From contig JBAWZF010000001.1 in NCBI GenBank assembly GCA_037143175.1, positions 106,199 to 170,198 on the forward strand: a DNA stretch of 64,000 bases. Reading direction: 5' to 3'. The DNA comes from a bacterium (GTDB lineage: Bacteria > Verrucomicrobiota > Kiritimatiellia > CAIKKV01 > CAITUY01). The position numbers and the translations under genes were made by a program. Of this stretch, positions 14,625 to 63,166 are shown piece by piece. The notes beneath the pieces were generated by a model. It was given only the letters and a program-made list of their open reading frames with translations. It made no database searches and had not been told where the DNA came from. Each line of letters opens with the position of its first letter. Positions within the stretch are counted from its first letter, which is position 1.

Positions 14625-14930
14625 TTTCGATTCCTTTACTTTCTGAAAAAATACTGACTTAAATTATCATAAGACCTATTTGGGCGCAACGGATACCGCC
14701 TGTGGAGTCATGGCGGACTCTACCGACTTACGCGAGTTTCTTGAAGAAGATGGCCTGGGATAGGGATTTCCCTGACGGAAAAATCAGGGAAACCCTCATA
14801 TCTTTCATCCCTGTAAGTGTTAGATTTTTTTATTCGAATGCCATTCTGCTTGACTGAGGTGCGAATGGGGAGTTATACCAAACTCATTGGTAATGTCGCA
14901 TTCAGTGGGTGGTCGTCTGGGGGAAGCACA

Positions 14931-15287
14931 ATGGACGATAGCTGTATAGATGAAAAGGCTTTAGAGGTTCTGAAAGAACTTGGCGGCGTCAGTTTTGTCG
15001 TCCAGATGATTGACGTTTTTCTGGCCTATGTTCCCAAAGTTCTTGTCGAGGCTCGGAATGGCCTCGCCGTGGGGAATCTTGAACCGGTGGTGCGGTTGGG
15101 GCATTCCCTGCGATCAAGCGGGCGTAACATAGGGGCGCAGAAGATTGTGGAACTGGCGCAAAGCGTCGAATCGGCCAGTCGTGCGGGCCAGTTAATTCCT
15201 TTACCCGTGCTTCTGGATCAGTTGGAAGAAGCATTTCTTCAGGCGAAAGTCTGCCTTGAAGAAACAAAAGCGCGATTATTGTCGTAA
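14931..15287 (+). CDS. Stand-alone Hpt (histidine phosphotransfer) domain protein
   Basis: The Hpt signature GHSLRSSGRNIGAQKIVELA matches the HxLKGSSxxxGA pattern. The ATG at 14931 follows GGGGGA. The track start of 14817 is probably too far upstream. Confidence 0.7.
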   Translation: MDDSCIDEKALEVLKELGGVSFVVQMIDVFLAYVPKVLVEARNGLAVGNLEPVVRLGHSLRSSGRNIGAQKIVELAQSVESASRAGQLIPLPVLLDQLEEAFLQAKVCLEETKARLLS

Positions 15288-15317: not shown

Positions 15318-16244
15318 ATGAGAAATGACGTCATGGTCTTTACTCTCGACGAGCAGCGGATTGCACTCCCGCTTCCAGGGGTGGCTCAACTCATCCGTTC
15401 TGCAGTGGTTACACCCCTGCCTCAGGCGCCTGCCAATGTGTTGGGCGTGATCAGCGTACAGGGGGAAAGCGTCCCGGTTCTTAACCTGCGCCAGCTTCTC
15501 GGTTTGCCTGAACGTGGGATCGGGCCGGACGCTCAGTTCATCATTATGATAACTGGGCGGCGCCGTCTGGCTTTGGTGGTGGATGAGGTCAAGGGGGTTA
15601 TGGACTTCCCCGAGCAGGACCTGACGGCGGCGGAGCCGATTCTGCCGGGGTTGGCGTTTGTGAAAGGGGCGGTCCGAACCCGCGATGGGACGATTCTGAT
15701 CAAGAATCCTGATTTATTCCTTTCGTTTTCCGACGAACGACTGTCGGATGAGTCGATACCATCCCCGGTAAAAACCCCGGAACCGCCGACTCCGGCTCAG
15801 ACGGGGTTTGACGTCATGGTCTTCACTCTGATGAATGAACATTACGGGATTGAAACGGCCCATGTGCGGGAAGTTTACCCGGCAATGGAAGTGACTCCCA
15901 TTCCCTGTACCCCCCATTTTGTGGCCGGAGTGATCAATGTGCGGGGGGATATCATCGCGGTGATCAACCTTAAAACCTATTTTGAACTTCCAGTGTCTGA
16001 GTCTTCAAGTTCAGGCGAGGTCATCATTGTGGAGGCGGGTGACTCTCTCTTTGGCGTTTTGGCCGATAGCACCCTCGGCGTATCTTTCGTTTCTCTCGCC
16101 GATTTTCAGGCGCCGCTCCCCGACTTATCCGGTATTCGGGCGGAGTCCTTGAGGGGGGTTACCAAGGATCAGATGTTTCTTCTCGATATTCCCAGGATGT
16201 TGGCAGATAAGAAACTATGGGTACACGAGGAGGTTGCATTATGA
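15318..16244 (+). CDS. cheW: Chemotaxis coupling protein with two tandem CheW domains
   Basis: There are two repeats of the MVFTL...VxTPxP...GVISVxG...VxNL CheW pattern, one in residues 1-140 and one in residues 165-300. Confidence 0.85.
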   Translation: MRNDVMVFTLDEQRIALPLPGVAQLIRSAVVTPLPQAPANVLGVISVQGESVPVLNLRQLLGLPERGIGPDAQFIIMITGRRRLALVVDEVKGVMDFPEQDLTAAEPILPGLAFVKGAVRTRDGTILIKNPDLFLSFSDERLSDESIPSPVKTPEPPTPAQTGFDVMVFTLMNEHYGIETAHVREVYPAMEVTPIPCTPHFVAGVINVRGDIIAVINLKTYFELPVSESSSSGEVIIVEAGDSLFGVLADSTLGVSFVSLADFQAPLPDLSGIRAESLRGVTKDQMFLLDIPRMLADKKLWVHEEVAL

Positions 16245-18481
16245 ACAATCAACGACAGAATCGGAATGGATCGGCCATGGGCGTTTGGTTGAAGGGGTTT
16301 ATGTTGGGGCTGGCAGGGGTGGCGGTTCTGCTGGCAAGTCCTGTCTTGGCGGAAGAGACTGGAAAGGCGCAAACAGCGGGTTCGGGCCAGGAACCAAAAA
16401 AGTTGAAATATATGACGCTCGACGAATTGATGAAGGTGGAGGTTGCTACGGTTACCACCGCCTCCAAGAAGGAGGAAAAGGCCACCGAAGCTCCGGCCAC
16501 CGTGATTGTGATCAGTGCCGCGGACATCAGGATGCGCGGCTATTCCACCCTGAAGGACGTGCTCCGCGACCTTCCCGGGATGGAAACCCGGGAATACTAT
16601 TTTGCGGAAGACGGCACGGAGGTTTCCGTGCGCGGCATTGTCGGTAACAACAAGATTGTGGTGTTGGTCAATGGCATGCGTGTCAATCCTCCCGGTGGCG
16701 AGAATTTTCCGTTTCGCAGTGACTTCAGTGTGAGGAACGCGGAGCAGATCGAGGTGATCTATGGTGCGGGCTCGACGCTTTACGGCCGCGATGCGGTGTC
16801 TGCCGTCATCAATATCATCACGAAGAAACCCGTGGAAGGTGTCACCGGGGAAGCGGGAGTGGCTGGGGGGCTTCATAATGAACGCGAAGCCTGGGGTTCG
16901 TTTGGTGGCATTCTTGACAAGGCCGGGCTCGTCCGGCTGAGCGGCATGATCCAGCACCACGACTCCGACCTGACGCGGCTTGACAGGGAATATCCGGGCT
17001 GGTGGCAAACCTATCGTGATGTCGCCAAAGCGAAGGGCTCCGGCTTGACGCCCACGCGAAGCGACTACGGTTTGAGCACTTTCGTACGGCTTGAAGCCGC
17101 TGACTTTTCACTGCAAACCTGGTATCGGGATTCAAGGCGCAGCAGTTCAGACAGCATGGCTCCCGCGTTCGGGTTTATTCCGGAGGCGTTGTGGGAGGAC
17201 TCCTCCTCCGTGACGGAGGCCAGATACCTGACCCGCTTTACCGACAAGGTGTGCCTGGACTCTGCCGTGACTTTCAACCGCTACGAGGTCGATCCGTCAA
17301 CCCGTTATGTCTGGGAAAATCCAGTGGACACGAAGTCATGGTATTACAATGACTACAAGTATGCGCGCGGGATATCCTATTCTGCCGAAGAGACCCTCAA
17401 GGTGGAATTCTCCAGGGACGTTTCGGTGCTGGCTGGCGTCGATGCCGCCCACTACGATATCGTGCCGAAATGCACGGTACCCGGCGGGGCGCATGGCTCC
17501 ATCGGGGACATCATGGAGGAAGGTGGGAGCTTTGAATATTACAGGGCGGACGGGAGTGGTCCCTATGGGATCCCCCGGGTCTATAATCAGAAGTATGAGA
17601 TGTACGGGGCTTATCTGGAAGGTGACTGGAGGGTTCTGGAGCGGGTGAAGGTCCTAGGCGGCCTCCGTGTGGATAAAGACACGCGGATCGACGATCCGTC
17701 CCTCACTCCGCGTGCGGGCGCCCTTTGGAATGTGAGCGATGAGCTGACGGTAAAATACAACTACTCCACCGCCTACATTTCCCCGGCCGCGTATTTTGCA
17801 GACAACGTCTACATGAACAATTACCAGATCAGTACGGCAAACCCCGGCTTGGAGCCTGAAAAATCGAGGACCCATGAGGTTGACTTAAACTATGCTAAAA
17901 AGGACTTCCAGCTCGGGTTAGCCCTGTATCATGGCGACCAGGAAAACCTGATCCAGATTTCCGACCGGAATTTGCCGCTGAACGTCATTGAAACCGTTTA
18001 TCTGGATTCAGCGCGCACCCAGCCAATAAACCTGATCCGGTCGGCCAATGGTGGCACAAGCTCCAATCAAGGGTTGGACTTATACGGCCGGGCGAACTTC
18101 GGGTCAGTCAGCCCCTGGTTCTCTTATTCCTACACGACTTTTGAAATGGAGACCGACGGTAAGATGACCGGTTTGCCTGGCATTTCGCATCATAACGGGC
18201 GTGTGGGGTTGACCTGGGCGGTTACGTCAAAACTGTTCGTCACGCCGAGCCTTGTGATCAGGTCTACTCCTGAAAACGTGCAGGCCGGGGCATTGGAACA
18301 CGAACTGGAAACACCCTGGCAGGCAAACGTGTACGCGTTGTATCATCTCTCGAAGTCTTTGGATCTCTATGCGGATCTGCGTAATGTTACCGATCATCAC
18401 TATGCCTTGAACGGGCTTTACGGCACGGCTGTTCCCCAGGAAACCTTGAGTGGCGTCATAGGAGTGAAAGCAACCTTCTGA
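16241..18481 (+). CDS. TonB-dependent outer-membrane receptor (plug + 22-strand barrel) encoded inside the che operon
   Basis: The signal peptide is MGVWLKGFMLGLAGVAVLLASPVLA. The plug motifs are ATVIVISAADIR and IEVIYGAGSTLYGRDAVSAVINIITKKP. The C-terminus ends ...IGVKATF with a terminal aromatic residue. The ATG overlaps the cheW stop (ATGA). Confidence 0.85.
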   Translation: MNNQRQNRNGSAMGVWLKGFMLGLAGVAVLLASPVLAEETGKAQTAGSGQEPKKLKYMTLDELMKVEVATVTTASKKEEKATEAPATVIVISAADIRMRGYSTLKDVLRDLPGMETREYYFAEDGTEVSVRGIVGNNKIVVLVNGMRVNPPGGENFPFRSDFSVRNAEQIEVIYGAGSTLYGRDAVSAVINIITKKPVEGVTGEAGVAGGLHNEREAWGSFGGILDKAGLVRLSGMIQHHDSDLTRLDREYPGWWQTYRDVAKAKGSGLTPTRSDYGLSTFVRLEAADFSLQTWYRDSRRSSSDSMAPAFGFIPEALWEDSSSVTEARYLTRFTDKVCLDSAVTFNRYEVDPSTRYVWENPVDTKSWYYNDYKYARGISYSAEETLKVEFSRDVSVLAGVDAAHYDIVPKCTVPGGAHGSIGDIMEEGGSFEYYRADGSGPYGIPRVYNQKYEMYGAYLEGDWRVLERVKVLGGLRVDKDTRIDDPSLTPRAGALWNVSDELTVKYNYSTAYISPAAYFADNVYMNNYQISTANPGLEPEKSRTHEVDLNYAKKDFQLGLALYHGDQENLIQISDRNLPLNVIETVYLDSARTQPINLIRSANGGTSSNQGLDLYGRANFGSVSPWFSYSYTTFEMETDGKMTGLPGISHHNGRVGLTWAVTSKLFVTPSLVIRSTPENVQAGALEHELETPWQANVYALYHLSKSLDLYADLRNVTDHHYALNGLYGTAVPQETLSGVIGVKATF

Positions 18482-18483
18482 TT

Positions 18484-19110
18484 ATGAATACACACATCCA
18501 TCCCGAGATCATTCTGTCGCGGACCGCCGGAATCCGGCCCGGCCAGCGGATGGTTGCTGCTGTCCTGCTGGCGGTGATGGGCTGGTTTGGTCTTCCCGCA
18601 TTTACTGTAACGGCTGCTTCTGAAGTATATAAGGAATACGAGGTCAAAGCCGTGTTTCTCTTTAACTTCGCCCAGTTCGTGGAATGGCCACAGGAGGCCT
18701 TTCAGGATGCCGCTACCCCCGTGTGCATCGGCGTGCTGGGGGATGATGCTTTTACCGACATTCTTGAAGGGATGGTAAAAGGGGAGACGGTCAAAGGGCG
18801 GTCCCTGGTGATCAAGAGGCTTCGTGATATGGCCGATGTCGCGACATGCCACGTGCTGTTCGTCAGCCGGTCAGAGGAATACCGGTTGTCAAAAATTTTC
18901 AGTCTTTTGAAAAATGCGGGTGTTTTAACCGTGGGGGAGTGCAAAGATTTTGCGATCCGGGAGGGAGTCATCAATTTCTTCCTTCAGGGGAATAAAATCC
19001 GGTTTGAAATCAATCCTGAGGCGGCGCGCAAGAAAGGACTCAAGATCAGTTCGCAGTTGTTGAGTCTCGCCAGAATTATTGAGATGGAACCCCCCAAGGA
19101 GAGGCGCTAA
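18484..19110 (+). CDS. YfiR/DUF4154 family periplasmic protein
   Basis: The signal peptide is followed by EYEVKAVFLFNFAQFVEWP, a CxGVLG motif, CHVLFVS, and the C-terminal INFFLQGNKIRFEINPEAARKKGLKISSQLLSLARI. This is collinear with P. aeruginosa YfiR (CVLG, CHLLYL, VSFEANLDSIARSGVRVNPSVLKLAR). Confidence 0.8.
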   Translation: MNTHIHPEIILSRTAGIRPGQRMVAAVLLAVMGWFGLPAFTVTAASEVYKEYEVKAVFLFNFAQFVEWPQEAFQDAATPVCIGVLGDDAFTDILEGMVKGETVKGRSLVIKRLRDMADVATCHVLFVSRSEEYRLSKIFSLLKNAGVLTVGECKDFAIREGVINFFLQGNKIRFEINPEAARKKGLKISSQLLSLARIIEMEPPKERR

Positions 19111-19114
19111 ACAC

Positions 19115-20707
19115 ATGAACTGGTTCCGGAATCTATCAATCAAGGGTAAGTTGATCCTGGCCATGCTGTTGACCAGCACCACCATCCTGGTGCTGGCTTG
19201 CACGGCGTTTGTCGCCTACGAGATGAATACGTTTCAGCGTGGGTTGAATCTCGAGATGAACGTTCTCGCCGATGTGTTGAGCCGTAACAGTACCGCGGCC
19301 TTGCAATTCGACGACCCGGTCGCTGCTGAAGTCACCCTCCACGCCCTGCAGGCGGAGCCGCATGTGGTTGTTGCCTGCCTTTACAAGGGAAATGGTGGAC
19401 GGTTTGCCTCCTATCACCGTAATGGTGACAAGGTGATGCCGCCCGAAAAAGCGGGTCCGGATGGATCCGTTTACCGCGCTGATCACCTGGAGATCATTCG
19501 GCCTGTCATGATGAATGACAAGCGGGTTGGATCTCTTTATCTCCGGGTGGATCTAGAGGGGATTCGTGAGCGTATTAACTTGTATGTCAGCATAGTTATC
19601 TTGGTGCTGATCAGCGCCTTTATCCTGACATTGGTCCTGGCGGCGGCGCTCCAGCGCGTGATTTCAAAGCCCATCCTGACCCTGGCGGACACCGCCAAGA
19701 TCATTAAGGAACGGAAAGATTATTCCGTTCGCGTTGAGGTTTATGGACAGGACGAAATAGGCCAGCTTACAGATGCGTTCAACCAGATGCTGGGGGAAAT
19801 TCAGGCGGGCCAGGAGACGATTCAGAAGGCGAACAAGTCGTTGCTGACTCAGGCCGGCCAGATCATGGATGGCGTCGGAATTTTGAGTTCATCCGCCAAA
19901 TCGATCCTCGGGTTCAGCAGCCAGTTGGTGGCCAATGCCGCCGATACCGTCACATCCGTGGTCGAGACCACGACCACTGTGGACGAGGTGCGGCAGACCG
20001 TGAAGTTGACAACCAGGAAAGCAGGACAGGTGGCCGAAGGCTCGGCCAACGCGAACCAAATCTCGCAGGCAGGTAAGAAGGCGGCCGAGGAGGCTGCGGA
20101 GGGGATGCGCCGTATCCGCACGCAGATGGATGCGATTGCCACCAGCATGCTCCGCTTAAGCGAGCAGAGCCAGACCATTCAGCAGATCATTGCGACGGTC
20201 GAGGACTTGGCGGCCCAGTCCAACGTGCTGGCGGTGAACGCCTCTATCGAGGCGGCCAAGGCCGGTGAACAGGGAAAAGGATTTGCCGTTGTGGCCCAGG
20301 AGGTCAGAAGACTGGCGGAACAGTCCAAGCAGGCCACGTCTCAGGTCCGGACGATCCTGAAGGAGATTCAGGCCGCCACTTCGATTGCCGTGATGGCCAC
20401 CGAACAGGGGACGCGTGTGGTGGAGACAGGAGTCAAACAGTATGCGGTGGCAGGAGAATCCATTCTTGCCCTGGCACGAAATGTCATGGAGGGAGCCCAC
20501 GCGGTGACGCAGATTGCCGCGTCAAGCCAGCAGCAACTGGCGGGAATGGATCAGGTGGCATCGGCCATTCAGAGTATCAAGGTGGCGGCGGATCAGAATG
20601 CGGATAACGCGAGGGAGTTGGAAACCTCCGCCCAACACCTTAACGAACTGGGCCAGAAGTTGAGGGAACTCGTCGTGCATTATGAAGGGCAGGAGACCGC
20701 CACGTGA
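19115..20707 (+). CDS. Methyl-accepting chemotaxis protein with YfiN-type (CHASE8-like) periplasmic sensor, HAMP and MCP signalling domain
   Basis: TM1 is at residues 12-34. The periplasmic segment VLADVLSRNSTAALQFDDPVAAEVTLHALQAEPHVVVACLYKGNGGRFASYHR parallels the YfiN periplasmic domain (ISYTVEAAVVFGDAQAAEESLALIASSEEVSSAIVYDRQGQALASWHRE). TM2 and a HAMP domain (ISKPILTLADTAKII...DEIGQLTDAFNQMLGEI) follow. The MCP core reads AAQSNVLAVNASIEAAKAGEQGKGFAVVAQEVRRLAEQS. Confidence 0.85.
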   Translation: MNWFRNLSIKGKLILAMLLTSTTILVLACTAFVAYEMNTFQRGLNLEMNVLADVLSRNSTAALQFDDPVAAEVTLHALQAEPHVVVACLYKGNGGRFASYHRNGDKVMPPEKAGPDGSVYRADHLEIIRPVMMNDKRVGSLYLRVDLEGIRERINLYVSIVILVLISAFILTLVLAAALQRVISKPILTLADTAKIIKERKDYSVRVEVYGQDEIGQLTDAFNQMLGEIQAGQETIQKANKSLLTQAGQIMDGVGILSSSAKSILGFSSQLVANAADTVTSVVETTTTVDEVRQTVKLTTRKAGQVAEGSANANQISQAGKKAAEEAAEGMRRIRTQMDAIATSMLRLSEQSQTIQQIIATVEDLAAQSNVLAVNASIEAAKAGEQGKGFAVVAQEVRRLAEQSKQATSQVRTILKEIQAATSIAVMATEQGTRVVETGVKQYAVAGESILALARNVMEGAHAVTQIAASSQQQLAGMDQVASAIQSIKVAADQNADNARELETSAQHLNELGQKLRELVVHYEGQETAT

Positions 20708-20709
20708 AC

Positions 20710-22482
20710 ATGGATTCGGATCAACTGGGTGCCGGGAAGTACACGACTTTTGTACGGGTGTCGGGTGGGGTTGTTTTGGCTTGGGCTTTTTTTGTTTGGA
20801 TCGGGTGGCGTTTTGATTATCCGGGCCTGACAAGCGTCTTGCCCGGTTGCAAAGCCATGAGCCCCCTGTCGGCGGTTGCGTTCTTTTTTGCGGGGAGTGG
20901 GCTGTTTTTGTGGAATGTCGCCTGTCCGGCCCGAAAACGGGTGCATCAGGTCGCCATCGGCCTGGGGGCGGCAGTGGTGCTGATCGGACTGTTCCGCCTG
21001 CTGGAAATTGTGTTCGATAAGGAATGGGGTTTTAATGCCCTGTTTCCCCTGCAGGTGACCCACATGGCTCCCCCTACGGCGGTTGCGTTCATCCTGCTCG
21101 GGTTCGCCTTGTGCAGCATGGGGGTTGGAACATGGCGTGGCATCAGTCTGGTCGAATGTTTCGTCCTGGTGCCGATTTTAATCGCGTTGCTGGTTTTGGT
21201 GGGGTACGGGTATCGGATACAACCCTTGTATTCCGTCAGTTCAGCAGTACCCGTCTCCTTCCCTTCGGCGCTGCTGATCATGATCCTTTCAGCGGGCATT
21301 CTCTATTCCTGTCCGGATCGGGGCCTGATGGGGCTGGTGACCCTCAAAACGGCGGCAGGGCGTATGGTGCGCCACTTGATGACGGGTAGCATGGTTCTTT
21401 TGTTCACCTTGGGCTGGCTTCGTCTGGAGGGGGAACGCTCGGGTCTATACAGTTCGGATATTGGATTTGCCCTGTTCATGATGTCGAATATCGTGCTTTT
21501 GGGAATGCTCATTTTCCGGAATGCCAGTCAGCTTCGCCGGGCGGAAATTCTGCATGAAGTGGAAGATGACACCCTGCGCAGGGAACACAAGGAATTGGAG
21601 GGCCATGCCGAGGAACGGACGCAGGATCTGGCACGGGTGGTGGCCGAACTGAGCAATGGTATTGCTATGCTCTTGGACGTAGCTCGTGATGTCATGACCG
21701 TCAGCAACCAGATGAGTACGGGGGCCGCCGAGACGGCCACGTCTGTGGCACAGACCGCCACCACTTTTGAAGAGGTCCGCCAGACCGTGCGAATGACCAC
21801 CCATGATGCGGGACAGGTTGCCTCGAGTGCCTTGCAGGCGGCCCAGTTTTCCCAGGAGGGGAGGAAATCCACTGAGGAGGCGATTGCCACCATGCAGCGC
21901 ATACGGGACGAAATGGATGCCATTGCCGATAGTATGATGCGGCTGAATGACCAGACTCAGTCCATTGGTCAGATTATCGACGCCGTGAATGCCCTCGCTG
22001 CGCAATCCAACCTCCTGGCTGTCAATGCCGCCATCGAGGCGTCGAAGGCAGGGGAACGAGGCAAGGGATTTTCTATTGTTGCTCAGGAGGTGAGGAACCT
22101 GGCGGATCAGTCCCGGCGGGCGACGCACCAGATCGGGATGATTCTGAATGACATCCAGAAGGCAACCCACCTGTCAGTCACGGCGATCGAGAACGGTCGT
22201 AAGGCGGTGGAAAGGGGTGTGTCTCAATCTGTGCAGACCGGCCATTCCATTGAGACGCTTGCCGCCAGCGTGAACTCCGCGGCGGAGGCGGCATCCCATA
22301 TCGCGAATGCCAATCAGCAGCAGCTCTATGGGGTGGATCAGGTATCGGTTTCCATGACGAACATCAGGGAGGCGACGACCAACAGCCTTTCCTGTTCCCG
22401 GCAGATGGAAGTCGCCGCACAGCATTTGAAGGAACTGGGACAGAAACTTGAGCAAGTGGTTGTCCAATACAAGGTCCCGTAA
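20710..22482 (+). CDS. Methyl-accepting chemotaxis protein with polytopic (about 7-8 TM) membrane-embedded N-terminal sensor, no HAMP
   Basis: The N-terminal ~270 aa are hydrophobic with multiple TM segments. The MCP core reads AAQSNLLAVNAAIEASKAGERGKGFSIVAQEVRNLADQS. The alternative GTG start at 20704 overlaps the upstream stop. Confidence 0.85.
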   Translation: MDSDQLGAGKYTTFVRVSGGVVLAWAFFVWIGWRFDYPGLTSVLPGCKAMSPLSAVAFFFAGSGLFLWNVACPARKRVHQVAIGLGAAVVLIGLFRLLEIVFDKEWGFNALFPLQVTHMAPPTAVAFILLGFALCSMGVGTWRGISLVECFVLVPILIALLVLVGYGYRIQPLYSVSSAVPVSFPSALLIMILSAGILYSCPDRGLMGLVTLKTAAGRMVRHLMTGSMVLLFTLGWLRLEGERSGLYSSDIGFALFMMSNIVLLGMLIFRNASQLRRAEILHEVEDDTLRREHKELEGHAEERTQDLARVVAELSNGIAMLLDVARDVMTVSNQMSTGAAETATSVAQTATTFEEVRQTVRMTTHDAGQVASSALQAAQFSQEGRKSTEEAIATMQRIRDEMDAIADSMMRLNDQTQSIGQIIDAVNALAAQSNLLAVNAAIEASKAGERGKGFSIVAQEVRNLADQSRRATHQIGMILNDIQKATHLSVTAIENGRKAVERGVSQSVQTGHSIETLAASVNSAAEAASHIANANQQQLYGVDQVSVSMTNIREATTNSLSCSRQMEVAAQHLKELGQKLEQVVVQYKVP

Positions 22483-22484: not shown

Positions 22485-24713
22485 ATGAACAGGCAGGAGG
22501 AAGAACTGTTGACGGCACTGAGGGCGGAATTCGCCGTCGAGGCCGTAGAGTATCTCCGCGCGATCACGGATGAACTCCTGGAATTGGAAAAGGGGCTGAA
22601 TCCCGACCGTCAGACCGTGGTGGTGGATAGCATCTGTCGGCAGATCCACAGCCTGAAAGGGGAGTCCCGTGCGGTTAATTTTCAGGACATTGAGACCATT
22701 TGCCATGCCCTGGAAAGTGTTTTGCTACCCTGGAAACCGCGTGGGTCTACGCCTCCACCGGGCGCCTTTGATACGCTGCACGAGGCACTGGATTCGATTC
22801 GGGCGATGCTTGCAACAGAAGGGGCGATGGGGCGACGTCAGCGTGATGAGGTGGTGGCCAAACTCGCGCTGTTCGTGCCAGCACCTGTGGCTGTTCCCGC
22901 CCCCCCGCCGCGGCCTGAACCTGTCCACCCTGAAACAGAAGAGGTTAAACTGCCGTCGGCGGAGGGAGGGGAAACGCGGCCTGAAGAAACCGTGCGGATG
23001 CCGGTGGCGCGGCTCGAGACGCTCCTGCTGCAATTGGAGGAGATGCTGGAGGTGAAGCTCACCCTGAATCAGCGGGCTGATGCCCTGCGGGCGGCGGTGG
23101 CCCTGGTTGAACAGGGAAAACGACAGGCGGTGAAAATTAACACTGAAGTCCGGTTGCTGGCAGGGGCTCAGGCCTGCCTGCCAACCCTCTTGGACGAGTT
23201 GCTGGAACGTCATAAAACCACGGTCAGCACACTCGGGGATGCCCTTGCCAGCCTCGCGAGGGGGGCAGATCAGGATGCCCATACGGTGAGCCTCCTGGTT
23301 GATAACCTTCTTGGCCAATCCAAGCGACTCCTGATGCTGCCTTTCAATACCCTGTTGGGGATTCTTCCAAAACTGGTAAGGGATCTCTGTCGTGATCAGG
23401 GCAAGGATGCGGAGATCGTCATCCGGGGGGGGGATATTGAGATCGACAAGCGAATCCTCCAGGAGTTGAAAGACGCCGTTATACACCTGACCCGCAACTG
23501 TGTGGACCACGGGATCGAGACGGTGGCGGTGCGGGAGCAGAAAAACAAGCCGGGTCGAGGAACCATTACCGTGGAGATCCTGCCGTTAGATGCCGGTAAG
23601 GTGGAACTGGTGATTCGGGATGATGGGGCAGGAATTGATGTCGAGGCGGTGAAAAAAGTAGCCATCAAACTGGGCGTGATTTCGGCCGCTAGCGCGGCGC
23701 ACCTGTCCCGGGACATGGCGTTAGATCTGATATTCCGGTCTTCTGTTTCTACCAGCAAGGCTGTGACCGCTGTCTCGGGACGCGGGCTGGGGATGGCGAT
23801 CGTGAAGGATCGGGTGGAAACGCTCGGTGGCCGGATAACGGTGGAAACCAGCCCGACTATGGGGAGCACATTCAGGATCACGCTGCCCCTTACCTTGACC
23901 ACATTTCGCGGTACCTTTGTGGACGCCGCTGGCCAGTGGTTCATTCTGCCTTCGGCCAGCGTGGATCGGGTCGCCCGGGTTCGGCGGAACCAGATCACGA
24001 TAGTGGACAGCCGGGAAGTGCTCTCTCTGGACGGTCACACCCTTGCGTTCGTGGAGCTGGCGGATGTGCTGGGGTTACCTTCGTTGGGCAGGTCGCCAAT
24101 GTATAAACCACTGGTCTCGATAGGGATTGTGGGTGTCGGGGATAAGCGAATCGCCCTTGGGTTTGATGAAGTTCTGACTGAGCAGGAAGTGCTGGTGAAG
24201 TCATTTATGAAGCCTCTTTCCCGGGTTCGCAATGTGGCTGGCGCAACGGTGCTTGCCTCGGGCCGTGTGGTGCCGATCCTCAATGTGGCTGACCTGCTAA
24301 AGTCAGCTGCCGTCCTTTCCAGTGCCCCCGCCCCCACCGCCCTGGAGCGGCAAAAGTCCCTCCTTTTGGTTGAGGATTCCATCATCTCGCGGGTGTTGTT
24401 CAAGTCCATTCTGGAGTCTGCCGGGTATGTGGTGAAAACCGCAGTCGACGGGGAGGGGGCGTGGGAGGTGATGAAGAAAGAAAATTTTGATGCCGTGGTT
24501 TCTGATATTGACATGCCAAGGCTGAACGGGCTTGAGCTCACCTCCCGGATCCGGCATGATAAACGCTTCGGTGATACACCCGTAATCTTGGTTACCGGGC
24601 TGTCGTCGCCGGAAGACCGTGTTCGCGGGTTAGAGGTGGGCGCTAACGCGTATATTGCCAAAAGCAGCTTCGAACAGAGCGACCTCCTTGAGGCGCTCAG
24701 GAGGGTGGTGTGA
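22485..24713 (+). CDS. cheA: CheA-type histidine kinase fused to C-terminal receiver domain (Hpt-dimerization-HATPase-CheW-REC hybrid)
   Basis: The Hpt motif is HSLKGESRAV. The HATPase_c motifs are HLTRNCVDHGIE, DDGAGID and GRGLGMAIV. A CheW-like domain (TFRGTFVDAAGQWFILP) is followed by REC (LLLVEDSIISR...VVSDIDMPRLNG...AYIAKS). Confidence 0.9.
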   Translation: MNRQEEELLTALRAEFAVEAVEYLRAITDELLELEKGLNPDRQTVVVDSICRQIHSLKGESRAVNFQDIETICHALESVLLPWKPRGSTPPPGAFDTLHEALDSIRAMLATEGAMGRRQRDEVVAKLALFVPAPVAVPAPPPRPEPVHPETEEVKLPSAEGGETRPEETVRMPVARLETLLLQLEEMLEVKLTLNQRADALRAAVALVEQGKRQAVKINTEVRLLAGAQACLPTLLDELLERHKTTVSTLGDALASLARGADQDAHTVSLLVDNLLGQSKRLLMLPFNTLLGILPKLVRDLCRDQGKDAEIVIRGGDIEIDKRILQELKDAVIHLTRNCVDHGIETVAVREQKNKPGRGTITVEILPLDAGKVELVIRDDGAGIDVEAVKKVAIKLGVISAASAAHLSRDMALDLIFRSSVSTSKAVTAVSGRGLGMAIVKDRVETLGGRITVETSPTMGSTFRITLPLTLTTFRGTFVDAAGQWFILPSASVDRVARVRRNQITIVDSREVLSLDGHTLAFVELADVLGLPSLGRSPMYKPLVSIGIVGVGDKRIALGFDEVLTEQEVLVKSFMKPLSRVRNVAGATVLASGRVVPILNVADLLKSAAVLSSAPAPTALERQKSLLLVEDSIISRVLFKSILESAGYVVKTAVDGEGAWEVMKKENFDAVVSDIDMPRLNGLELTSRIRHDKRFGDTPVILVTGLSSPEDRVRGLEVGANAYIAKSSFEQSDLLEALRRVV

Positions 24714-24716: not shown

Positions 24717-25787
24717 ATGGATTCGCAGATGATCAAAATTCTAATTGTGGATGATTCTCCCATCTTCCAGAAGCTCTATACGCTACTGTTCCGGGCTGAT
24801 CCCGAACTCCGGGTCATAGGAATCGTCAACGATGGCGCGGAGGCGCTTGCGTTCGTCGCGAATCAAAGGCCGGATGTGATTTTGATGGACCTCCAGATGC
24901 CCGTGATGAACGGGTATGAGGCAACGCGGCGCATTATGGAAACGGATCCCATCCCGATTGTCATCTGTAGCGCCAGTTCCCAGCACGATGATGTCAACAA
25001 GACGTTTCAGGCGGTGGAAGCTGGGGCCGTGGCATTTCTTAACAAGCCAGCCGGTCCGGGGCATCCGGATTTTCAGAGCTCCGTGGCCAATATGATACAG
25101 ACCATCAAGCTGATGGCGGAGATCAAACAGGTGAAACGGATGCGGCGTCCGGCACAGGCGAGGGAGGAAGGCACCCGGCTGATGCCCGGTGCGATGTCGT
25201 TTGCCAACGCTCCCCGCGTGGTTGCCATCGGTGCCTCGACCGGGGGACCACTGGTGCTGCAAACGATCCTTGGGTTTTTGCCGAGGAATTATCCTGTGCC
25301 CCTGTTGATTGTTCAACACATTGCCGAGGGCTTTGTAAAAGGTTTTGCGGAGTGGTTGGGCAGTACCACGGGTTTTCCAATCCACATTGCAGAACATAAT
25401 GTCCGGGCATTGCCCGGGCATGTCTACCTTGCTCCAGACAATCTCCATCTGGGGATGTCGGCGGGTGGGACCCTGGTGTTGAGTGGGGATGCCCCAGAGA
25501 ATGGCCTTCGTCCGGCGGTATCTTACCTGTTCCGGTCCGTGGCCCTGACCTTCGGCCCTTCTGCCGTGGGCGTTTTACTGACTGGTATGGGAAAGGATGG
25601 TGCCCAGGACTTGAAGCAACTGAAGGAGAGGGGTGGGATCACCATCGCTCAGGACAAGGAGAGTTCACTGATCCATGGGATGCCGGGTGAGGCTATTCGT
25701 CTGGAGGCAGCGCTTCATGTGCTCCCGCCGGAAAAAATTTCCGCCCTGTTGGTGCAATTGGTGAACTCGAGAGGAGTGCTGCCATGA
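24717..25787 (+). CDS. cheB: Chemotaxis response-regulator protein-glutamate methylesterase
   Basis: The REC domain reads ILIVDDSPI...ILMDLQMPVMNG. The CheB catalytic domain reads VVAIGASTGGPLVLQTIL and IVQHIAEGF, with an HxxxD-type His. Confidence 0.9.
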   Translation: MDSQMIKILIVDDSPIFQKLYTLLFRADPELRVIGIVNDGAEALAFVANQRPDVILMDLQMPVMNGYEATRRIMETDPIPIVICSASSQHDDVNKTFQAVEAGAVAFLNKPAGPGHPDFQSSVANMIQTIKLMAEIKQVKRMRRPAQAREEGTRLMPGAMSFANAPRVVAIGASTGGPLVLQTILGFLPRNYPVPLLIVQHIAEGFVKGFAEWLGSTTGFPIHIAEHNVRALPGHVYLAPDNLHLGMSAGGTLVLSGDAPENGLRPAVSYLFRSVALTFGPSAVGVLLTGMGKDGAQDLKQLKERGGITIAQDKESSLIHGMPGEAIRLEAALHVLPPEKISALLVQLVNSRGVLP

Positions 25788-26953
25788 ACACACCGCTCAA
25801 AGCTCTCATCATTGAGGATTCTGAAAGTGATGCGCTTCTGTTACTTGCGTATTTGCGGCATGGGGGATATGAGCCTCAGTTTCGCCGGGTTGATAACGCG
25901 GCGGACCTTGCAGATGCCCTCAATCAGCAGACCTGGGATATTGTTTTCTCCGACCATAATATGCCGGGATTCAGCTCCACGGCGGCCCTTGCAATGGTCA
26001 GGGCCGTCAATGTGGACATTCCTTTTCTGATCGTGTCGGGGAGCATCGGTGAGGAAGTGGCTGTGGCTGCGATGAGGGCTGGCGCTCAGGATTACCTGAC
26101 CAAAGGACATCTGGCGCGCCTGGTTGCGGCGGTGGATCGGGAGCTGAAGGATGCGGAAGACCGGCAGGGCCGCCGGGCGGCGGAACGTTGTTTACTGGTT
26201 CGGGAGGAGGAACTTCGCATTGCGAAAGAGATCCAGCAACAGCTCTTTCCCGCCATCTCCCCGGCGTATGCGGGCTATGATATGGCGGGGGCATCATGTT
26301 CTGCCGAAGCCACGGGTGGTGATTATTTCGATTTTATTGCCGGTCCACACGGGGAGATTTTTGTCGTGGTGGGGGATGTTACCGGGCATGGCCTCGGACC
26401 CGCCCTGCTGATGACGGATGTCCGGGCTTATTTGAGGGCATTGGTTCTCTCGAACCGGAGCCTCGAGGACATTATGGTTCAGGCAAGACATCTCCTGGTG
26501 GAAGACCTTGGCAGTGACCGGTTCATCACGCTGCTCTTTGCCCAACTTAGTCCCCAAACCGGTGCGTTGGATCACATTAATGCCGGTCACCCGACCGGCT
26601 ATGTGATTGCGCATGAGGGCCATGTCCGTGAAGAATTGGTGGCGACGGCGCCAGCATTGGGCATTGATGCGGAGAACGAACGCTTGGTTTCCGCCCGGGT
26701 CTTGCTACAAAAAGGGGATCTGGTGTTTCTCCTCACCGATGGGATATTGGAATCGACGTCTCCTACCGGTGAAGAATTCGGAGTGTCTCGCGCACTGGAG
26801 CTGGTCAAAGGGGCTCGACACCTTCCCTCCGCGCAGATCATTCAACTGCTGTTTGATGAAGTTCGACGTTTCAGCGGCGCCGATACCCTTCAGGATGACA
26901 TTACGGCGGTGGTGATCAAATGCCAGAATGAGAACCATTGCATCCCGGCATAA
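25784..26953 (+). CDS. Response regulator with PP2C-type (SpoIIE/RsbU-like) serine phosphatase output domain
   Basis: The REC domain reads ALIIEDSESD...VFSDHNMPGFS. The PP2C/SpoIIE motifs are GGDYFDF, VVVGDVTGHGLGPALLMT and LTDGILE. It overlaps the cheB stop (ATGA). Confidence 0.85.
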   Translation: MNTPLKALIIEDSESDALLLLAYLRHGGYEPQFRRVDNAADLADALNQQTWDIVFSDHNMPGFSSTAALAMVRAVNVDIPFLIVSGSIGEEVAVAAMRAGAQDYLTKGHLARLVAAVDRELKDAEDRQGRRAAERCLLVREEELRIAKEIQQQLFPAISPAYAGYDMAGASCSAEATGGDYFDFIAGPHGEIFVVVGDVTGHGLGPALLMTDVRAYLRALVLSNRSLEDIMVQARHLLVEDLGSDRFITLLFAQLSPQTGALDHINAGHPTGYVIAHEGHVREELVATAPALGIDAENERLVSARVLLQKGDLVFLLTDGILESTSPTGEEFGVSRALELVKGARHLPSAQIIQLLFDEVRRFSGADTLQDDITAVVIKCQNENHCIPA

Positions 26954-50811: not shown

Positions 50812-53800
50812 TTACTCCTCTTCTCCATGACCGGAAACCTCATGGAAATAGCGCTGGATTAAGGGGCGGTATTCTTCGGGGCCTTCATTATTGGCCGCCT
50901 TGAGCACATCGTCTTTCAATTCACCGTGCAGACGGAGCCAATCCTGAAGTTTTAGCCCCATACGTCGTGCAAAGGAGGGGACCCCTTCGGAGGCCTGTGA
51001 GGTATCGTTTTTGCCGTCACTGTTAAGACTGGCCGATTGGAGGGTCGCAGGGCGTGCGTTGGCGCCTGAGGCTTGAGCATCGGCGGCAGCCAGTTGAGCG
51101 GCTTGCGCCAGTTGAGTGGCGGACTGTGCGGCGGCAGATACTTGTGAACTTTCCGCCGCCTGTTTGGCCGACTGATAGGCTTGGGCGATGGCTTCCTGAG
51201 CTGCCAGCGAGGCGGCGGGTTGCTGGCCAGGGGCCGCCCTGGGCGTTTGAGGGGAACCCGCAGCACTGGCAACCTGTTGCAATTGAGCGGAGGCCTGTTG
51301 CAGTGATTGGGCGGCGTTCTGCTGGTTCTGAAGGGTTTGGCTGGCAGCCTGTTGTTGTTCCTGGGCTGAGGCCCTGCGCCCGGAATCATCATCCTTTCCG
51401 GTTGCCTCGATGAATCGTTTGGCGGATTGTTCTGCAGATTGGGTTGCCCGGTTTAATTCCTGGGCCGCCTGTGCTGTTTTGGGGCCAATCTGGGATTGTG
51501 CCAGAACATCGTTCGCTTGTTCATGGAGTACGTTGGCTTCCTGGGTGAGTTCTTTCGCCTCTCCGCCCAATTGTTCCTGCTGTTGTTGCAAGGCATCGTG
51601 TGGCCTGTTCTCGGCGAGGGCACCCATCAGATGTCCCAGTTGTGCCTGCTGTTTTGAGAGGGTGTCGGCCTGCTGGGCAAGACGGGCGAGTTCTGCACGT
51701 TTATCGAGCCGGTCTGAGGCGGTCGCTGTGGTTGCGGAGCGAAGCGTATCGGCGAGTTGATTCATGGCCTGACTGGCTTCCGTCGCGGATGAACTTGCTT
51801 GTGGCAGGTCACCTTTTTGCATTTCAGAGGCGGTCTGACGGGCCGTATCTGCCGCCCGGGTTGCCTGTATCGCCGCGCGGGTGGGAGGGGGCTCCTTATT
51901 CAATTCACGTGCCAGCGCATCGGTTTCATCCGCTAATTTCTGCTGCTGTTCGCCCGCCTGTCGTGAGAGGTTTGCGTTCAGTAAATCTTTTGCGTTCTCT
52001 TTTCCTGTAATCAGGTTGGCGGCTTCGCGGTGAAGTTCCGCTTGCTGCCGGGCCAGTTCTGACAACTTTAGCGCATTGTTTTGTTGAAGGATCCGCGCGG
52101 CAATTTCGCTGGTTTTCAATGCCGCTTCGGCTGCGGCCACGGCATTGGCGGTAGCTGTGGACGTCACCTTCGTGGCTTCTGATTGAGCCTGTTCGGCGGC
52201 GCGTGTGGAGGTTGAAGCGGCGGCCTTCTGGGCTTGCTCGATGGCATTTTGGGCTGCTTGCTGGGCCGTTTGAGCCGCCTGTTGTGCGTTTTGAACCTGT
52301 TGATTCACGGACTGGACGGATTGTTTTGCCTGCTGTGAGGCGTCCCGGGCTGCGGCTTCATTTTGTTTGGCGGCCAGGGCGTTTTGCTGTGCGGTCTGAG
52401 CAGCGCGAGCCATTGCCTGTTCGTCGGGTTTACCCTTGGCTTGAGTTGCCTGCTGAGTAATCTGCTGAGCGGCCTGAGCACTTCGGGCCGCCGTCTGTTG
52501 GGCGGTGGCTGCCTGTTGATCGATTTGTTGGGCTGCCTGCCGGGCTTTTTCTGCTGCCTGCTTTGTGGCCTCTGCTGCTTGTTGGGCAATCTTGTTGGCC
52601 TCCTGAGCTTGCTGCGCGGCTCGTTGTGCGGACGCTTTCGCCGAGACATTTCCGAATTTCGGCGCAATGGCGGCGGTAACTTGGGCATTGGTCTTGATAC
52701 CTGCTGCCTGGGTGGCAAACTCGTTGGCCTTTAGCGCCGCTTCCTGGGCGGCTACGGCGTTGGCGGTGGCGGCGGCGGCCGCCTTGGCCGTTTCTGCCTG
52801 TGCCTGCTCGGCGGCGCGCGTGGAGTTGGCGGTGGCTCCCCGCTGGGCTTGTTCAGTTGCCTGTTGAGCGGCTTGCTGGGCCGCTTGAGCCGCCTGCTGT
52901 GATTTTTGCACCTGTTGTTCTGCGGCTTGGGTGGCTTGCTTTGCCTGCTCTGCAGCCGCACGCGCTTCGACTTCGTTCTGCTTCGCGGTCTGCGCATTTT
53001 TCTGGGCGGTCTGAGCAGCTTGAGTCATGATTTGTTCGTTGGCGGTACCCTTGGATTGCTGGGCCAGTTGTGCCGCTTGTTCAGCTGTTTGTGAGCCTTT
53101 AGCGGCGGCTTCCTGGGCTGTGGCCAATTCTTGTGCGGCCTGTTGGACTGACTGTTTGGCGCGTTCTGCCGCCTCACCGGCGATTTTGGCAGCTTGTTGG
53201 GCCATCCGGCGGGCGTCTTGAGCTTGCTGTTCTGAACGTTGAGTGGCGTTCTTAGTCGCGGCATTTTCAAGGTTGAGTTTACTGGAGTCCTGTTGCTCGG
53301 CTTTCAAGCCTGCGGCACGCGCGGCGAAGTCACTGGCTTTGAGCGCGGCCTCTTCTGCGGCCAAGGCCTTGGTTGCGGCTAAGGCGGCGGCCTTACGGGT
53401 TTCGTCCTGAGCCTGTTCAGTGGCGCGTGGGGACGTGGCAGAAGCAGCCTTCTGCGCTTGATCAATTGCCTCTTTCGCCGCCTGCTGGGCTTCTTCAGCC
53501 GCATTTTGCGCTTTTTGTGCCTGAACTTCGGCGGACTGGTTGATTTGTTTTGCCTGTCGCGCGGCTTGTGAGGCAGTTTGTGCACTCTTTGAGGAAGTTT
53601 GTTTAGCCATCGCCGCCTGTTGTTCGAGTTGTTGGGCTGTCTGCCTGGTATTTTCAGCCGCCTGCCCGGCGTTTACCGTTGCCTGCCGGGCAAGTTTGGC
53701 ATCTTCCTGTGCTTGCTGTGCGGCCTGTTGCGTGGCGGCTTTTGCCAGGGCGTTTTCGAGCGGGGATTTTCCTGAGGCTTGCTGTTCCGCACTCAGGTCT

Positions 53801-57531: not shown

Positions 57532-60500
57532 CAGGGCAGCCTCACTTTCTTGCGCAGCATCCACTCGGCGGTCAGGAGCGTCAGGATCAGAAGAAACCAG
57601 GGCCAGGAATTCCATATATCAATCTGGCGCCGTTCTGTGCTCGTGATTTTTGCGGGCCCGAGCCGTTTGGAAATGGAGTCGAGCGCAGATGTATCCAGGA
57701 CCTTGCCGGCGGAAAGTCCGGCCAGACTGGTCAGCACTCCGCGGTCCGCCGAAAGCTCAACTTTTTCAGCATCCGTTACCGCCGTGACGGAAAATTCGGT
57801 GAACGGTGACGGGGCGGTATCCTTTTTGCTGATTCCAGACGTTTCCAGTTCAATGCGGTAATTCCCTTCGGGTAACGCACTCAGTTCGGTGAAGTAGATC
57901 CCCGGAGAGCTCTCGCGATAACTCAATTGGAAATGGGAGACTTTCCGGTCGCCGCGCCACAGCGTTGCGCCAGGGGAAGCTTTTATGATGGGCATGAAGT
58001 CCGGCGTGGCCAGCCGTGCGGTAACGCGAATCGGGCTTCCGGCAGGGTAACGCGAGCGGGAGGTTCCAATCCGGAGCGTATTGGAACCGGTGGCAATTCT
58101 ATCGGCCGTGGCCCAGCCGAGAATTTGACCCCATAGTTTGTGGTGAAATTGATCGCCCTTCTTGTAACGCATACGCCAGGTCTGGTCGAACCCGAACATC
58201 AGAACCGAGCCGAAGCCGGCTTGATGGCTGATCACGAGCGGATTCTCCTGTTCAAGTCGTTGTTGCTTGAGAAGACTTTCGGCGTCAGGAATACGGCTAG
58301 GCAGCCCATCGGATTCCGGCTGTGGTGGTGTCGCATAGGCGAGCACGGTGGCCCCGTTCTTGGCCGTGATGGCGCCGTTCCTCCAGCGGAGTCCGGGCAC
58401 TTCGCCCCAGGCTTTCAGGTTCCCGGCCGGGTCATCATCAAGCCTCATAAACATGGCATCCCGGCCCGCCGCAGTCAGGCTGAGCCGAAATTCCATTTCC
58501 GGTGCCGCAAGAAGGGGACGCTGGGTGGGTTTGAAAGTGACGGGAAGGATTTCTGTCAGGGGAGTACCGGTATAGGCTTGCGGCATATGCCGACTTCCTG
58601 CGATGACAATGAGTGAACCGCCGCGGCTGAGGACATAGTCCCGCAGGATGTCCATGTTGGCCTTGCCCAGTTCATCAGGGGCCACATCTCCCAGGATAAT
58701 GACATCGAATTTCAGCCACTCCGCCGTATTCGTCGGAAGGAGGGTGGCTTCGGGTTCCGCCTGGTCTGCCGCGACAGTGGCAGCGCGCGGGGGGCGGTTG
58801 GTGATTCCCGCAACCTGGTCAGGATGAAGCAACAGGTACTGGAGCCGCACATTCTTGTCCCGTTGCATGAAGAGATTTTTGAGATAACGGAATTCCCAGC
58901 GCGGTTGGCCGTCGATCAGCAGGACATTGATGGCATCGCTCTCTACCCGCACGGGAATATTGAATACGTTATTGCTGGAATCGACTTCGGAAGGGAAATT
59001 TCCAACCCTGACGGAATAGGCGTGCAGGCCATTTGTTTTTGGGGCATCCGAGAGCAGGAGCTGCTGTCGGAAGGCAGCGGCTGAAGGTGTGACGGTGTTA
59101 GAGGCAACCGGGGTGGCGCCATCGAAGAGGGTGACGGTCACATTGGAGCCAGACAGGCCATCCAGTTTCAAATCGAGCGCAAAGGAGATCCGGTCGTTTG
59201 TGCTGACCGATTCGGGCGCGGTGACAGAGGCGATGGCGGCATCGGTCGGGGGGAACTGATTTCCTCCGAGTACAACAGGGAAGATAGGAATTCGCTGTAC
59301 GCCGAATTTGCGGGCGATGGATTCCACGGAACCGGCGGTGTTGTGGCGGCCGTCCGTAAGAAGAAGCACCCCGGCGGTCTGTTCCGGTACCATGGTGGAT
59401 GAGATCCTGGCCAAGGCTCCAGCGATATCGGTTCCCTGAACCTGCCGGGGCGGAGGCGAGGTGATGACCAGGGTGCCAGCGGCCTCAAGAAATGTTTTGG
59501 TTTTTACTTCGGTGGGTGATGACCCGAAGGTCAAGAGTTGAACGCCATATTCATGCTCGAGACGTTCGAGCAGGGACTGTGTGCCGGTGCGGGTTGTCAG
59601 GAGTTTATACGCCACCTCACTCCGGCGGAACGTGGCCATCTGGTCGATGGCCTTGCGATCCGACTCGGACAGGGAACGGTAGAAGCGTTCATCCACGGCA
59701 TCGCCGATGAGCCGCAGTCGTGCTTCGCCCTCGGCGAGGAAGGTCGCCGTTTTTTGCACGGTTTCGCGGATGGAGTCATAGGCGGCACCGCTATTGGTGA
59801 CGGTCTGCCAGTCGTCAACCCGCTTGATGGCAAGCTCCAGGGGTTGACTGGCTTCGGAGGTAATTCGGGATCTGAAGCGCTTCAGATCGGTGATTTGGGA
59901 GGTGGCATCCTTCTGAAGGAAGGGCGCCGCCGCGGTTTCGTCGAGGACTTTTACGGTTTCTTCGAGACTGTCGCGAACCTGGGTCAGCGCTTTCCGTTGC
60001 GCTTTAACATGCTGTTTCAATTGGCGGGCGCGGAGATCCTGGCCGGTTCCGGAAAGAGCATTAAGCCAGTCGAGTTGCGCCAGAAGGTTCTGACTGGCTT
60101 CGTTCAAGCGGTCGGCAAGTGTGTCGACTTGGAAGAGGCGTTGAGCCATGGGGAGCTGCAGGCTCTCGGCCAGGCGTAGTTTTTCGGCCACGGTCAGGTT
60201 GTTATCCGGGATCTGCATGGAGGCGCTGACATCCAGCAAGACCACGATGTGACGCTGGATTTTATGGGCGACGTTGTAGACGAAAACGGGCTGACAGAGC
60301 ATCAGGACAACCGCCAGTAGGGTGGATATCCTGAGGAGGGTCAGGGCTCTGCCAGCCCGGGGGGATACGATATTCCGTTCAAGACGTGCCAGTGCCATGA
60401 CCGTTTCGATCAGGAGGGCGGCGAGAAGCAAGAGTGGCCACAGACGCCATTTAGTTGAAAATACGACGGCCTGTTGGGCCAGTCCGGCGGCGGCGAGGAG

Positions 60501-63154: not shown

Positions 63155-63166
63155 GGTGACTCCGGC

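Follow-up and report, generated by a model that had tools for sequence, protein, structure and literature searches.

In the YfiBNR system of Pseudomonas aeruginosa and E. coli (TpbB/DgcN; HmsCDE in Yersinia), a gene of the DUF4154/YfiR fold lies directly before the gene of a membrane sensor, in which a first transmembrane (TM) helix, a CHASE8 domain, a second TM helix and a HAMP domain are followed by a GGDEF diguanylate cyclase. The third component, the OmpA-like lipoprotein YfiB, is encoded downstream, belongs to the outer membrane and sequesters YfiR. A related arrangement was found in a stretch of 64,000 nucleotides from a bacterium of the Kiritimatiellia (Verrucomicrobiota; contig JBAWZF010000001.1, positions 106,199 to 170,198; hereafter the window), where three consecutive genes encode a TonB-dependent receptor (TBDR), a YfiR-like periplasmic protein and a methyl-accepting chemotaxis protein (MCP) with a CHASE8 domain. 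This trio is part of a chemosensory (che) operon, and a sequence-only reading of the window had taken it for YfiBNR rewired directly into a chemosensory pathway. The resemblance to YfiBNR extends from the gene pair to the residues of the YfiR partner-binding surface, which are kept, and to the presence of a third component in the outer membrane. However, the window sensor signals as an MCP to CheA instead of through GGDEF, a 22-strand TBDR encoded upstream takes the place of the downstream lipoprotein, and the YfiR-like protein lacks the Cys145–Cys152 disulfide of Pseudomonas YfiR and falls below the cut-off of the NCBIfam model for YfiR proper, the regulatory sequestration protein (NF053586; 31.1 bits against 85).

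A closer counterpart is catalogued in NCBIfam release 20, in which three consecutive curated models, NF053590 (TBDR, TOL_0244), NF053591 (TOL_0243 family YfiR-like periplasmic protein) and NF053592 (sensor histidine kinase), represent the kinase version of the trio. Components and gene order are those of the window, and both the YfiR-like protein (NF053591, 171.6 bits against a cut-off of 125) and the sensor head (NF053592, residues 8–230, 230.1 bits against 194) pass the respective models. The window differs in that its output is an MCP within a che operon instead of a histidine kinase, and in that its TBDR is not of the TOL_0244 type, reaching 92.9 of the 645 bits required by NF053590 and matching only the N-terminal 187 positions of this profile. 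Because the sensor next to YfiR-like relatives is a kinase in 60 of 73 cases and an MCP in 4 of 73, and because the window protein scores far higher as a TOL_0243 relative than as YfiR proper, the parent system is the TBDR/YfiR-like/CHASE8 kinase trio rather than YfiBNR, and the proposal of a direct rewiring gave way to assignment to this separate family. The accompanying suggestion that the module had not been described stood in part: the kinase-output trio is already catalogued, and the novelty is confined to the MCP/che version with its different TBDR lineage. In a full-text literature search no paper on how the trio works was found and, in agreement with the initial reading, no description of a Yfi-type sensor feeding CheA.

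For molecules that exceed the size limit of porins, signalling across two membranes has been worked out chiefly in sigma/anti-sigma systems of the FecA type. In FecA–FecR–FecI and FpvA–FpvR–PvdS, as in the scheme discussed here, a TBDR serves trans-envelope signalling, an N-terminal periplasmic segment is the proposed signalling element and the gene neighbourhood is regulatory. Unlike these transducers, the window TBDR gave no match to the STN signalling domain, with ~30 residues between its signal peptide and TonB box, a Pfam search of the operon returned neither sigma nor anti-sigma genes, and the relay is proposed to consist of a soluble YfiR-like protein and a Cache-type sensor. With regard to the kinase trio, TOL_0244 of Thalassolituus oleivorans, the exemplar of the NCBIfam TBDR family, was induced 7-fold on n-C28 alkane, and OmpS (B5T_01485) of Alcanivorax dieselolei, reported to be 40.3% similar to TOL_0244, has been described as an extracellular alkane sensor and chemotaxis trigger. 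Both proteins are TBDRs, as in the trio, and OmpS is reported as a sensor; these reports mention neither a YfiR-like protein nor a CHASE8 sensor, and the window TBDR belongs to another lineage.

Conservation of the trio and of its chemoreceptor-linked form

One genome per species was scanned with an alignment of the YfiR-like protein, which gave 585 confirmed relatives, and neighbourhoods were counted in the best 80 loci, found in Verrucomicrobiota, Acidobacteriota, Gemmatimonadota, Planctomycetota, Nitrospirota, Latescibacterota, Bacteroidota, Myxococcota and Proteobacteria. The gene directly downstream encodes CHASE8 in 71 of 73 cases; the 60 kinase outputs were recognized by HATPase_c, accompanied by REC in 29 of them, and besides the four MCPsignal domains a GGDEF-EAL output was seen once. 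A TBDR stands beside the YfiR-like gene in 60 of the 67 loci with enough upstream DNA (55 co-directional and immediately upstream, 5 divergent), and the receptor that the sequence-only reading had placed in the position of the outer-membrane partner is a conserved neighbour. Conversely, when the search was started from the TBDR, using plug-level relatives in a metagenome sample, a YfiR-like gene was present in 36 of the 55 loci that extended far enough downstream, and none of the sensors linked in these metagenome loci was an MCP. The gene order recurs in independent genomes, and the association goes far beyond what chance would give. Other orders occur as well, namely sensor/YfiR-like/TBDR, a TBDR after the sensor, and a TBDR divergent from the YfiR-like gene (L114, L125, L130, L139 and L040; L023, L034, L045, L069 and L077), and the association is therefore independent of one fixed operon layout.

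The genes that follow the sensor encode REC domains or response regulators in 32 of 47 cases. ABC transporters, substrate-binding proteins, TonB and ExbBD were absent both from the 15 families after the sensor and from the 25 commonest of the 60 families before the TBDR. The neighbourhood of the trio is regulatory and signalling, not nutritional. The TM-CHASE8-TM-HAMP head itself is widespread: at E ≤ 1e-30 a set of 1.84 billion representatives contained 2,343 relatives, counted as clusters at 50% identity.

The MCP-linked form is a family of its own with more than 100 sequence clusters, and the neighbourhood survey that had been set as a check of the initial reading showed the trio to recur, with the MCP version in Verrucomicrobiota and Planctomycetota. 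The best 120 full-length homologues of the window chemoreceptor are 44–93% identical, and 117 of the 120 are annotated with CHASE8, HAMP and MCPsignal together. All five MCP neighbourhoods that were inspected contain one or more TBDRs, a DUF4154 gene and the CHASE8 MCP side by side. In one of these (L084), with an MCP homologue 66% identical to that of the window, the operon equals the window's gene for gene, with Hpt at the same position. In Verrucomicrobium sp. BvORR106 (L001) the trio stands beside CheA-REC, REC-PP2C, CheB, CheR-TPR and CheW. A metagenome-assembled genome (MAG) of the Phycisphaerales (L002) has che genes alongside and encodes CheR-TPR; a Chthoniobacter MAG (L083) lacks che genes over a distance of 10 kb. 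CheA-REC and REC-PP2C are adjacent in L001 and L084, and the Hpt and REC-PP2C ends of the operon are both kept in L084. A tree of the CHASE8 region, built quickly by neighbour joining, gave no resolution as to whether the MCP-linked sensors form one clade or several.

The three proteins of the trio

The domain assignments of the sequence-only reading held for all three proteins, with profile matches above cut-off for plug and barrel, DUF4154, and CHASE8, HAMP and MCPsignal (Table 1). The DUF4154 match of the YfiR-like protein (cut-off 24.9 bits) covers positions 1–143 of the 143-position profile, the protein has the YfiR three-dimensional fold, and its export to the periplasm is indicated by a hydrophobic segment at residues 23–37 followed by VTA/AS, as seen from hydropathy and direct reading. 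Its identity across phyla has a median of 48%. Residues F162, E163 and N165 of Pseudomonas YfiR correspond to F174, E175 and N177 of the window protein, and the pocket residues V176 and L181 to I188 and L193; all of these are invariant in the family alignment. In Pseudomonas YfiR this C-terminal surface binds YfiB and YfiN alike (PMC4655355, PMC4887326). Small molecules bind Pseudomonas YfiR with dissociation constants of only 35–77 mM, in the pocket that anchors Phe57 of YfiB, and this pocket resembles a docking site for another protein.

Redox sensing had also been put forward. In that case the YfiR-like protein would report on the state of the periplasm through its own stability or folding, in the manner of YfiR but without a YfiB, and the TBDR would simply be expressed alongside, as a regulated target for instance. 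Pseudomonas and E. coli YfiR is indeed destabilized under reducing conditions or in the absence of DsbA, whereupon YfiN becomes active (PMC4655355), and equivalents of Cys71 and Cys110 are kept in the window protein. However, the stabilizing disulfide is absent, Cys145 and Cys152 being aligned with Ala157 and Asn164; the sole invariant cysteine of the family (17 members) is C122, and the Cys71 equivalent varies. Likewise, a bystander gene would not be expected to stay in place as the TBDR does, in 60 of 67 loci from many phyla and at times in several copies. An envelope-stress or redox sensor of this type is accordingly regarded as highly improbable, and the redox claim was abandoned.

The input half of the chemoreceptor is YfiN-like and an MCP domain replaces GGDEF, as had been read from the sequence. 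A hydropathy scan placed TM1 at residues ~13–35, the periplasmic domain at 36–157 and TM2 at ~158–180; CHASE8 (PF17152; cut-off 27 bits) lies between the two helices, and HAMP comes next. No GGDEF match was obtained for the protein, and the NCBIfam DgcN/YfiN model matched in its N-terminal 239 positions only (93.7 bits against 325). The periplasmic domain was modelled confidently as a single Cache/PDC domain, with a predicted local distance difference test (pLDDT) score of 88.6, and the nearest structural neighbours of the model are WalK, the LapD periplasmic domain, CitA and PhoR. The signalling domain forms a hairpin with arms of ~140 residues (~40 heptads) and carries the tip motif EAAKAGEQGKGFAVVA at ~residue 388. 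MCPsignal, in combination with CheW, CheA and CheB in one operon, identifies the protein as a methyl-accepting chemotaxis protein. Although NF053592 bears the name 'sensor histidine kinase, YfiR-like protein-associated', this MCP passes it (19115–19810), and automatic annotation could therefore mislabel such MCPs as histidine kinases.

The TBDR is complete, with a signal-like N-terminal hydrophobic segment, a short linker, the motif LDELMKVE (residues 60–67), the TonB box directly after it (~V68–A74, positioned by alignment to BtuB residues 6–12 and to CirA), plug, barrel and a C-terminal Phe (...KATF). A motif of the LxxLSLEELMxIEV type is conserved across an alignment of 54 receptors taken from trios. 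Main-lineage trio TBDRs (L031, L044, L005 and L064) pass NF053590 with 657–844 bits, and overall the trios draw on several TBDR lineages that are ~20% identical to one another. A far higher variability of the TBDR than of the YfiR-like protein would have marked the receptor as the specificity element; such a difference was ruled out for the main lineage, which is 63% identical in the plug and 44% over the full length against 48% for the YfiR-like protein.

In the Chthoniobacter MAG (L083, 143–8939) four tandem TBDRs, from three lineages with only 21–23% identity between them, share one YfiR-like gene and one CHASE8 MCP downstream. All four keep the LEELM-type motif, and one of them is of the window lineage (56% identical). 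Tandem TBDRs, two in each case, likewise stand before one YfiR-like gene and one CHASE8 MCP in L085 (3197–7597) and in the Phycisphaerales MAG (L002, 5203–9388). A further locus from the Verrucomicrobiota (L012, 2091–6701) pairs a TBDR close to that of the window (829 bits, 59% identity) with a CHASE8 sensor that has no MCP domain and is probably a histidine kinase; hence an exchange of output domains has taken place between close relatives of this module. The che-linked version shows the input to be portable, one sensor head driving histidine kinases, a cyclic di-GMP enzyme or a CheA phosphorelay.

A proposed sensor spanning the envelope

The reading that we tentatively prefer, at somewhat short of an even chance, is that the trio forms one sensor spanning the whole cell envelope, with capture of the YfiR-like protein by the TBDR (sequestration) as the first step. 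The order of the components, with the TBDR as input, the YfiR-like protein as coupler on CHASE8, and a route from the MCP via CheA-REC and Hpt to REC-PP2C, has in our view good support from gene linkage, from topology and from the homology to YfiR/YfiN. Every protein–protein contact, including those of the YfiR-like protein with CHASE8 and with the TBDR, is a part that we infer, and so are the sign of the regulation, the ligand and the phosphatase target. In this scheme the specificity for the signal would be set at the outer membrane by the TBDR, and the YfiR-like protein would be the periplasmic coupler, its conserved C-terminal surface binding the single Cache/PDC domain of CHASE8 and holding it in one signalling state. 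The ligand-loaded TBDR would expose its N-terminal segment (LxxLSLEELMxIEV plus TonB box) in the periplasm, and the exposed segment would capture the YfiR-like protein and free the chemoreceptor, much as YfiB sequesters YfiR. The chemoreceptor could then alter the autophosphorylation of CheA-REC via the CheW-CheW protein, and the phosphoryl group would pass through the stand-alone Hpt to REC-PP2C, whose substrate is probably a partner-switching protein of the STAS type with its gene at another locus, while CheB would provide adaptation.

Alternatively, the TBDR may be a TonB-energized gate for a large or hydrophobic ligand, which is recognized in the periplasm by the YfiR-like protein, in the role of a single-lobe binding protein, or directly by the CHASE8 pocket and shifts the interaction of the two and the output, in which case the TBDR and the YfiR-like protein would never touch. 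Import followed by sensing has precedents in PfeA with PfeS/PfeR of Pseudomonas and in the SusC-type transporters that work with hybrid two-component sensors in Bacteroides. The intact plug, TonB box and barrel of the window TBDR agree with such a function, as do the substrate-binding-protein-like fold of YfiR, the ability of Pseudomonas YfiR to bind vitamin B6 and L-Trp, and the CHASE8 model, which has the CitA/PhoR/WalK-type sensor fold that often binds small molecules; the induction of TOL_0244 on alkane can be added here. Still, the ligand affinities of Pseudomonas YfiR are millimolar, and the combination of a conserved YfiR-like protein and sensor domain with TBDR lineages of ~20% identity, sometimes in tandem, is hard to reconcile with one ligand site. 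In addition, the conserved N-terminal motif of the TBDR is left unexplained by import and sensing, and its occurrence on the three lineages of the Chthoniobacter locus is explained more easily by a shared docking peptide than by one periplasmic site for several imported ligands. Taken together, import followed by sensing is considered possible but rather unlikely.

The sequestration reading has several points against it in turn. The LEELM-type motif just N-terminal of the TonB box was present in 30 of 30 YfiR-linked TBDRs and in 6 of 19 unlinked ones, a comparison that is descriptive only, the pattern having been loosened post hoc as the first one was too strict. It is further confounded by common ancestry and has no same-genome TBDRs outside trios as controls, every TBDR in the loci at hand adjoining a YfiR-like gene. 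The motif might instead be a lineage-specific variant of the TonB box that serves TonB binding. The window TBDR is of a lineage apart from the main trio TBDRs (~19% identical), and findings may not transfer between lineages. Finally, no anti-sigma gene was found in the window, nor a STAS gene among the window open reading frames (ORFs) scanned by profile, which likewise contained no TonB/ExbBD or OmpA-like genes, nor a match to CheR when the 64-kb window was searched by tblastn with the CheR of Verrucomicrobium sp. BvORR106. As the motif evidence is both post hoc and confounded by ancestry, the preference for sequestration over import with sensing is tentative.

In a wider context, the trio suggests another common route for two-membrane signalling, composed of a TBDR, a YfiR-type protein and a Cache-type sensor. 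It occurs in thousands of genomes from the environment, and YfiBNR, a system of medical interest, is recast as one branch of a larger family. A more far-reaching proposition, which we consider doubtful, is that the trios constitute a third general TonB-dependent signalling route beside the sigma/anti-sigma and import-then-sense routes. The LSLEELMxIEV peptide, exposed on ligand-loaded receptors, would then capture a soluble YfiR-like inhibitor and so activate a Cache-type sensor in the inner membrane, receptors that differ in specificity could be multiplexed onto one sensor, and the output (histidine kinase, chemoreceptor or cyclic di-GMP enzyme) would be interchangeable. On this view it would be a common system of the Verrucomicrobiota, Acidobacteriota, Gemmatimonadota, Planctomycetota and part of the Proteobacteria, and the classical YfiBNR would rank as a derived relative. 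The YfiR pocket and the N-terminal motif of the TBDR are concrete targets for experiments, and Verrucomicrobium sp. BvORR106 and Thalassolituus oleivorans are cultured hosts.

With respect to the output, a hybrid CheA-REC combined with Hpt as the first and REC-PP2C as the last gene is the layout typical of Wsp-like alternative-function systems. By domain layout the window operon is of the alternative-cellular-function type: CheA has a C-terminal REC, the last gene encodes a REC-SpoIIE protein, and a single-domain CheY is absent. With the Wsp pathway (WspA–F, WspR), a chemosensory pathway for lifestyle control, it shares the CheA-REC hybrid, CheW, CheB and an enzyme-linked REC output, and an Hpt feeding a REC-PP2C protein is found in the HptB–HsbR–HsbA pathway of Pseudomonas (HptB–HsbR). 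It differs from Wsp in having PP2C instead of GGDEF as output and the trio as receptor input, and in that the window holds neither the CheR of a Wsp-like pathway nor a STAS partner. The window pathway hence looks like a Wsp-type non-motility chemosensory system with PP2C output. REC-PP2C is the probable output of the pathway, and this end of the operon argues for control of gene expression or lifestyle rather than for flagellar switching.

A receptor for motility, with the trio sensing an attractant or repellent imported by the TBDR and steering flagella or pili, would account for the presence of MCPs, CheW, CheA and CheB in the operon and would be in line with OmpS of Alcanivorax, which is reported to trigger alkane chemotaxis. 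Contrary to this assignment, the operon has no stand-alone CheY, no CheR, no CheZ and no flagellar genes, and the CheA-REC fusion, the Hpt start and the REC-PP2C end follow the Wsp-like layout. The Hpt and REC-PP2C ends recur in L084, and REC-PP2C alone stands beside CheA-REC in Verrucomicrobium sp. BvORR106. Control of motility is for these reasons judged unlikely.

Operon layout and surrounding genes

The + strand between ~14.8 and 27.0 kb of the window is occupied by a single tightly packed operon of nine genes, from Hpt to REC-PP2C (Table 1).

Table 1. Genes of the che operon, with positions in the window and the evidence for each assignment
Gene product	Position	Strand	Evidence and remarks
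Hpt, stand-alone phosphotransfer protein	14817..15287	+	Pfam Hpt 44.3 bits; likely start ATG 14931, giving 118 aa
CheW-CheW coupling protein, two CheW domains	15318..16244	+	Pfam CheW 188 bits, two stretches
TonB-dependent receptor (TBDR)	16241..18481	+	Pfam Plug 72.6 bits, TonB_dep_Rec_b-barrel 107 bits (scored as 16217/16241-18481)
YfiR-like periplasmic protein, TOL_0243 family	18484..19110	+	DUF4154 (PF13689) 155.7 bits
Chemoreceptor TM-CHASE8-TM-HAMP-MCP	19115..20707	+	CHASE8 72.5, HAMP 48.7, MCPsignal 122.9 bits (scored as 19079/19115-20707)
Second MCP, polytopic N-terminus	20704..22482	+	Pfam: MCPsignal alone; hydropathy scan
Hybrid CheA: Hpt, HATPase, CheW, REC	22485..24713	+	Pfam; counterpart in L001 and L084
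CheB methylesterase (REC + CheB_methylest)	24717..25787	+	Pfam
REC-PP2C phosphatase (SpoIIE/RsbU-type)	25784..26953	+	Pfam Response_reg + SpoIIE 147.6 bits

The operon junctions are overlaps or gaps of 2–4 nt, and the translational coupling that had been claimed for the trio was borne out, with Hpt, CheW, CheA and CheB genes flanking it. The start of the TBDR overlaps the CheW stop (ATGA), with a GAGGAGG Shine-Dalgarno sequence 8 nt upstream; the YfiR-like gene starts with ATG 2 nt past the TBDR stop; the ATG of the chemoreceptor follows 4 nt past the YfiR-like stop, with AAGGAGAGG upstream; and the GTG of the second MCP overlaps the stop of the CHASE8 MCP. The start codons given in the sequence-only reading are thereby the likely ones. 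Within the Hpt ORF, the indicated ATG is in frame and preceded by a G-rich Shine-Dalgarno sequence. A scan of the operon for promoters and terminators gave nothing above chance. The genes around the operon are housekeeping genes, namely alaS, glnS/gltX-type synthetases, mutS, ksgA and amtB-glnB.

The second MCP has an N-terminal region of ~280 aa with 7–8 predicted TM helices, which matched no Pfam or NCBIfam sensor family and may be an uncharacterized membrane-embedded sensor domain. The gene is kept directly after that of the CHASE8 MCP in L003 and L084.

Further along the window, on the − strand at 50812–57615, a 2267-aa ORF without Pfam match is composed of 23% Ala and 13% Gln, with an N-terminal membrane-like segment followed by long AQ-rich coiled-coil-like repeats; the ORF accounts for the extreme AT skew seen here (−0.55 at 52–54 kb). 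Near it, at the end of the window (60650–63902, − strand), a BatA/VWA gene (896 aa) and a DUF58 gene form an aerotolerance-type Bat cluster.

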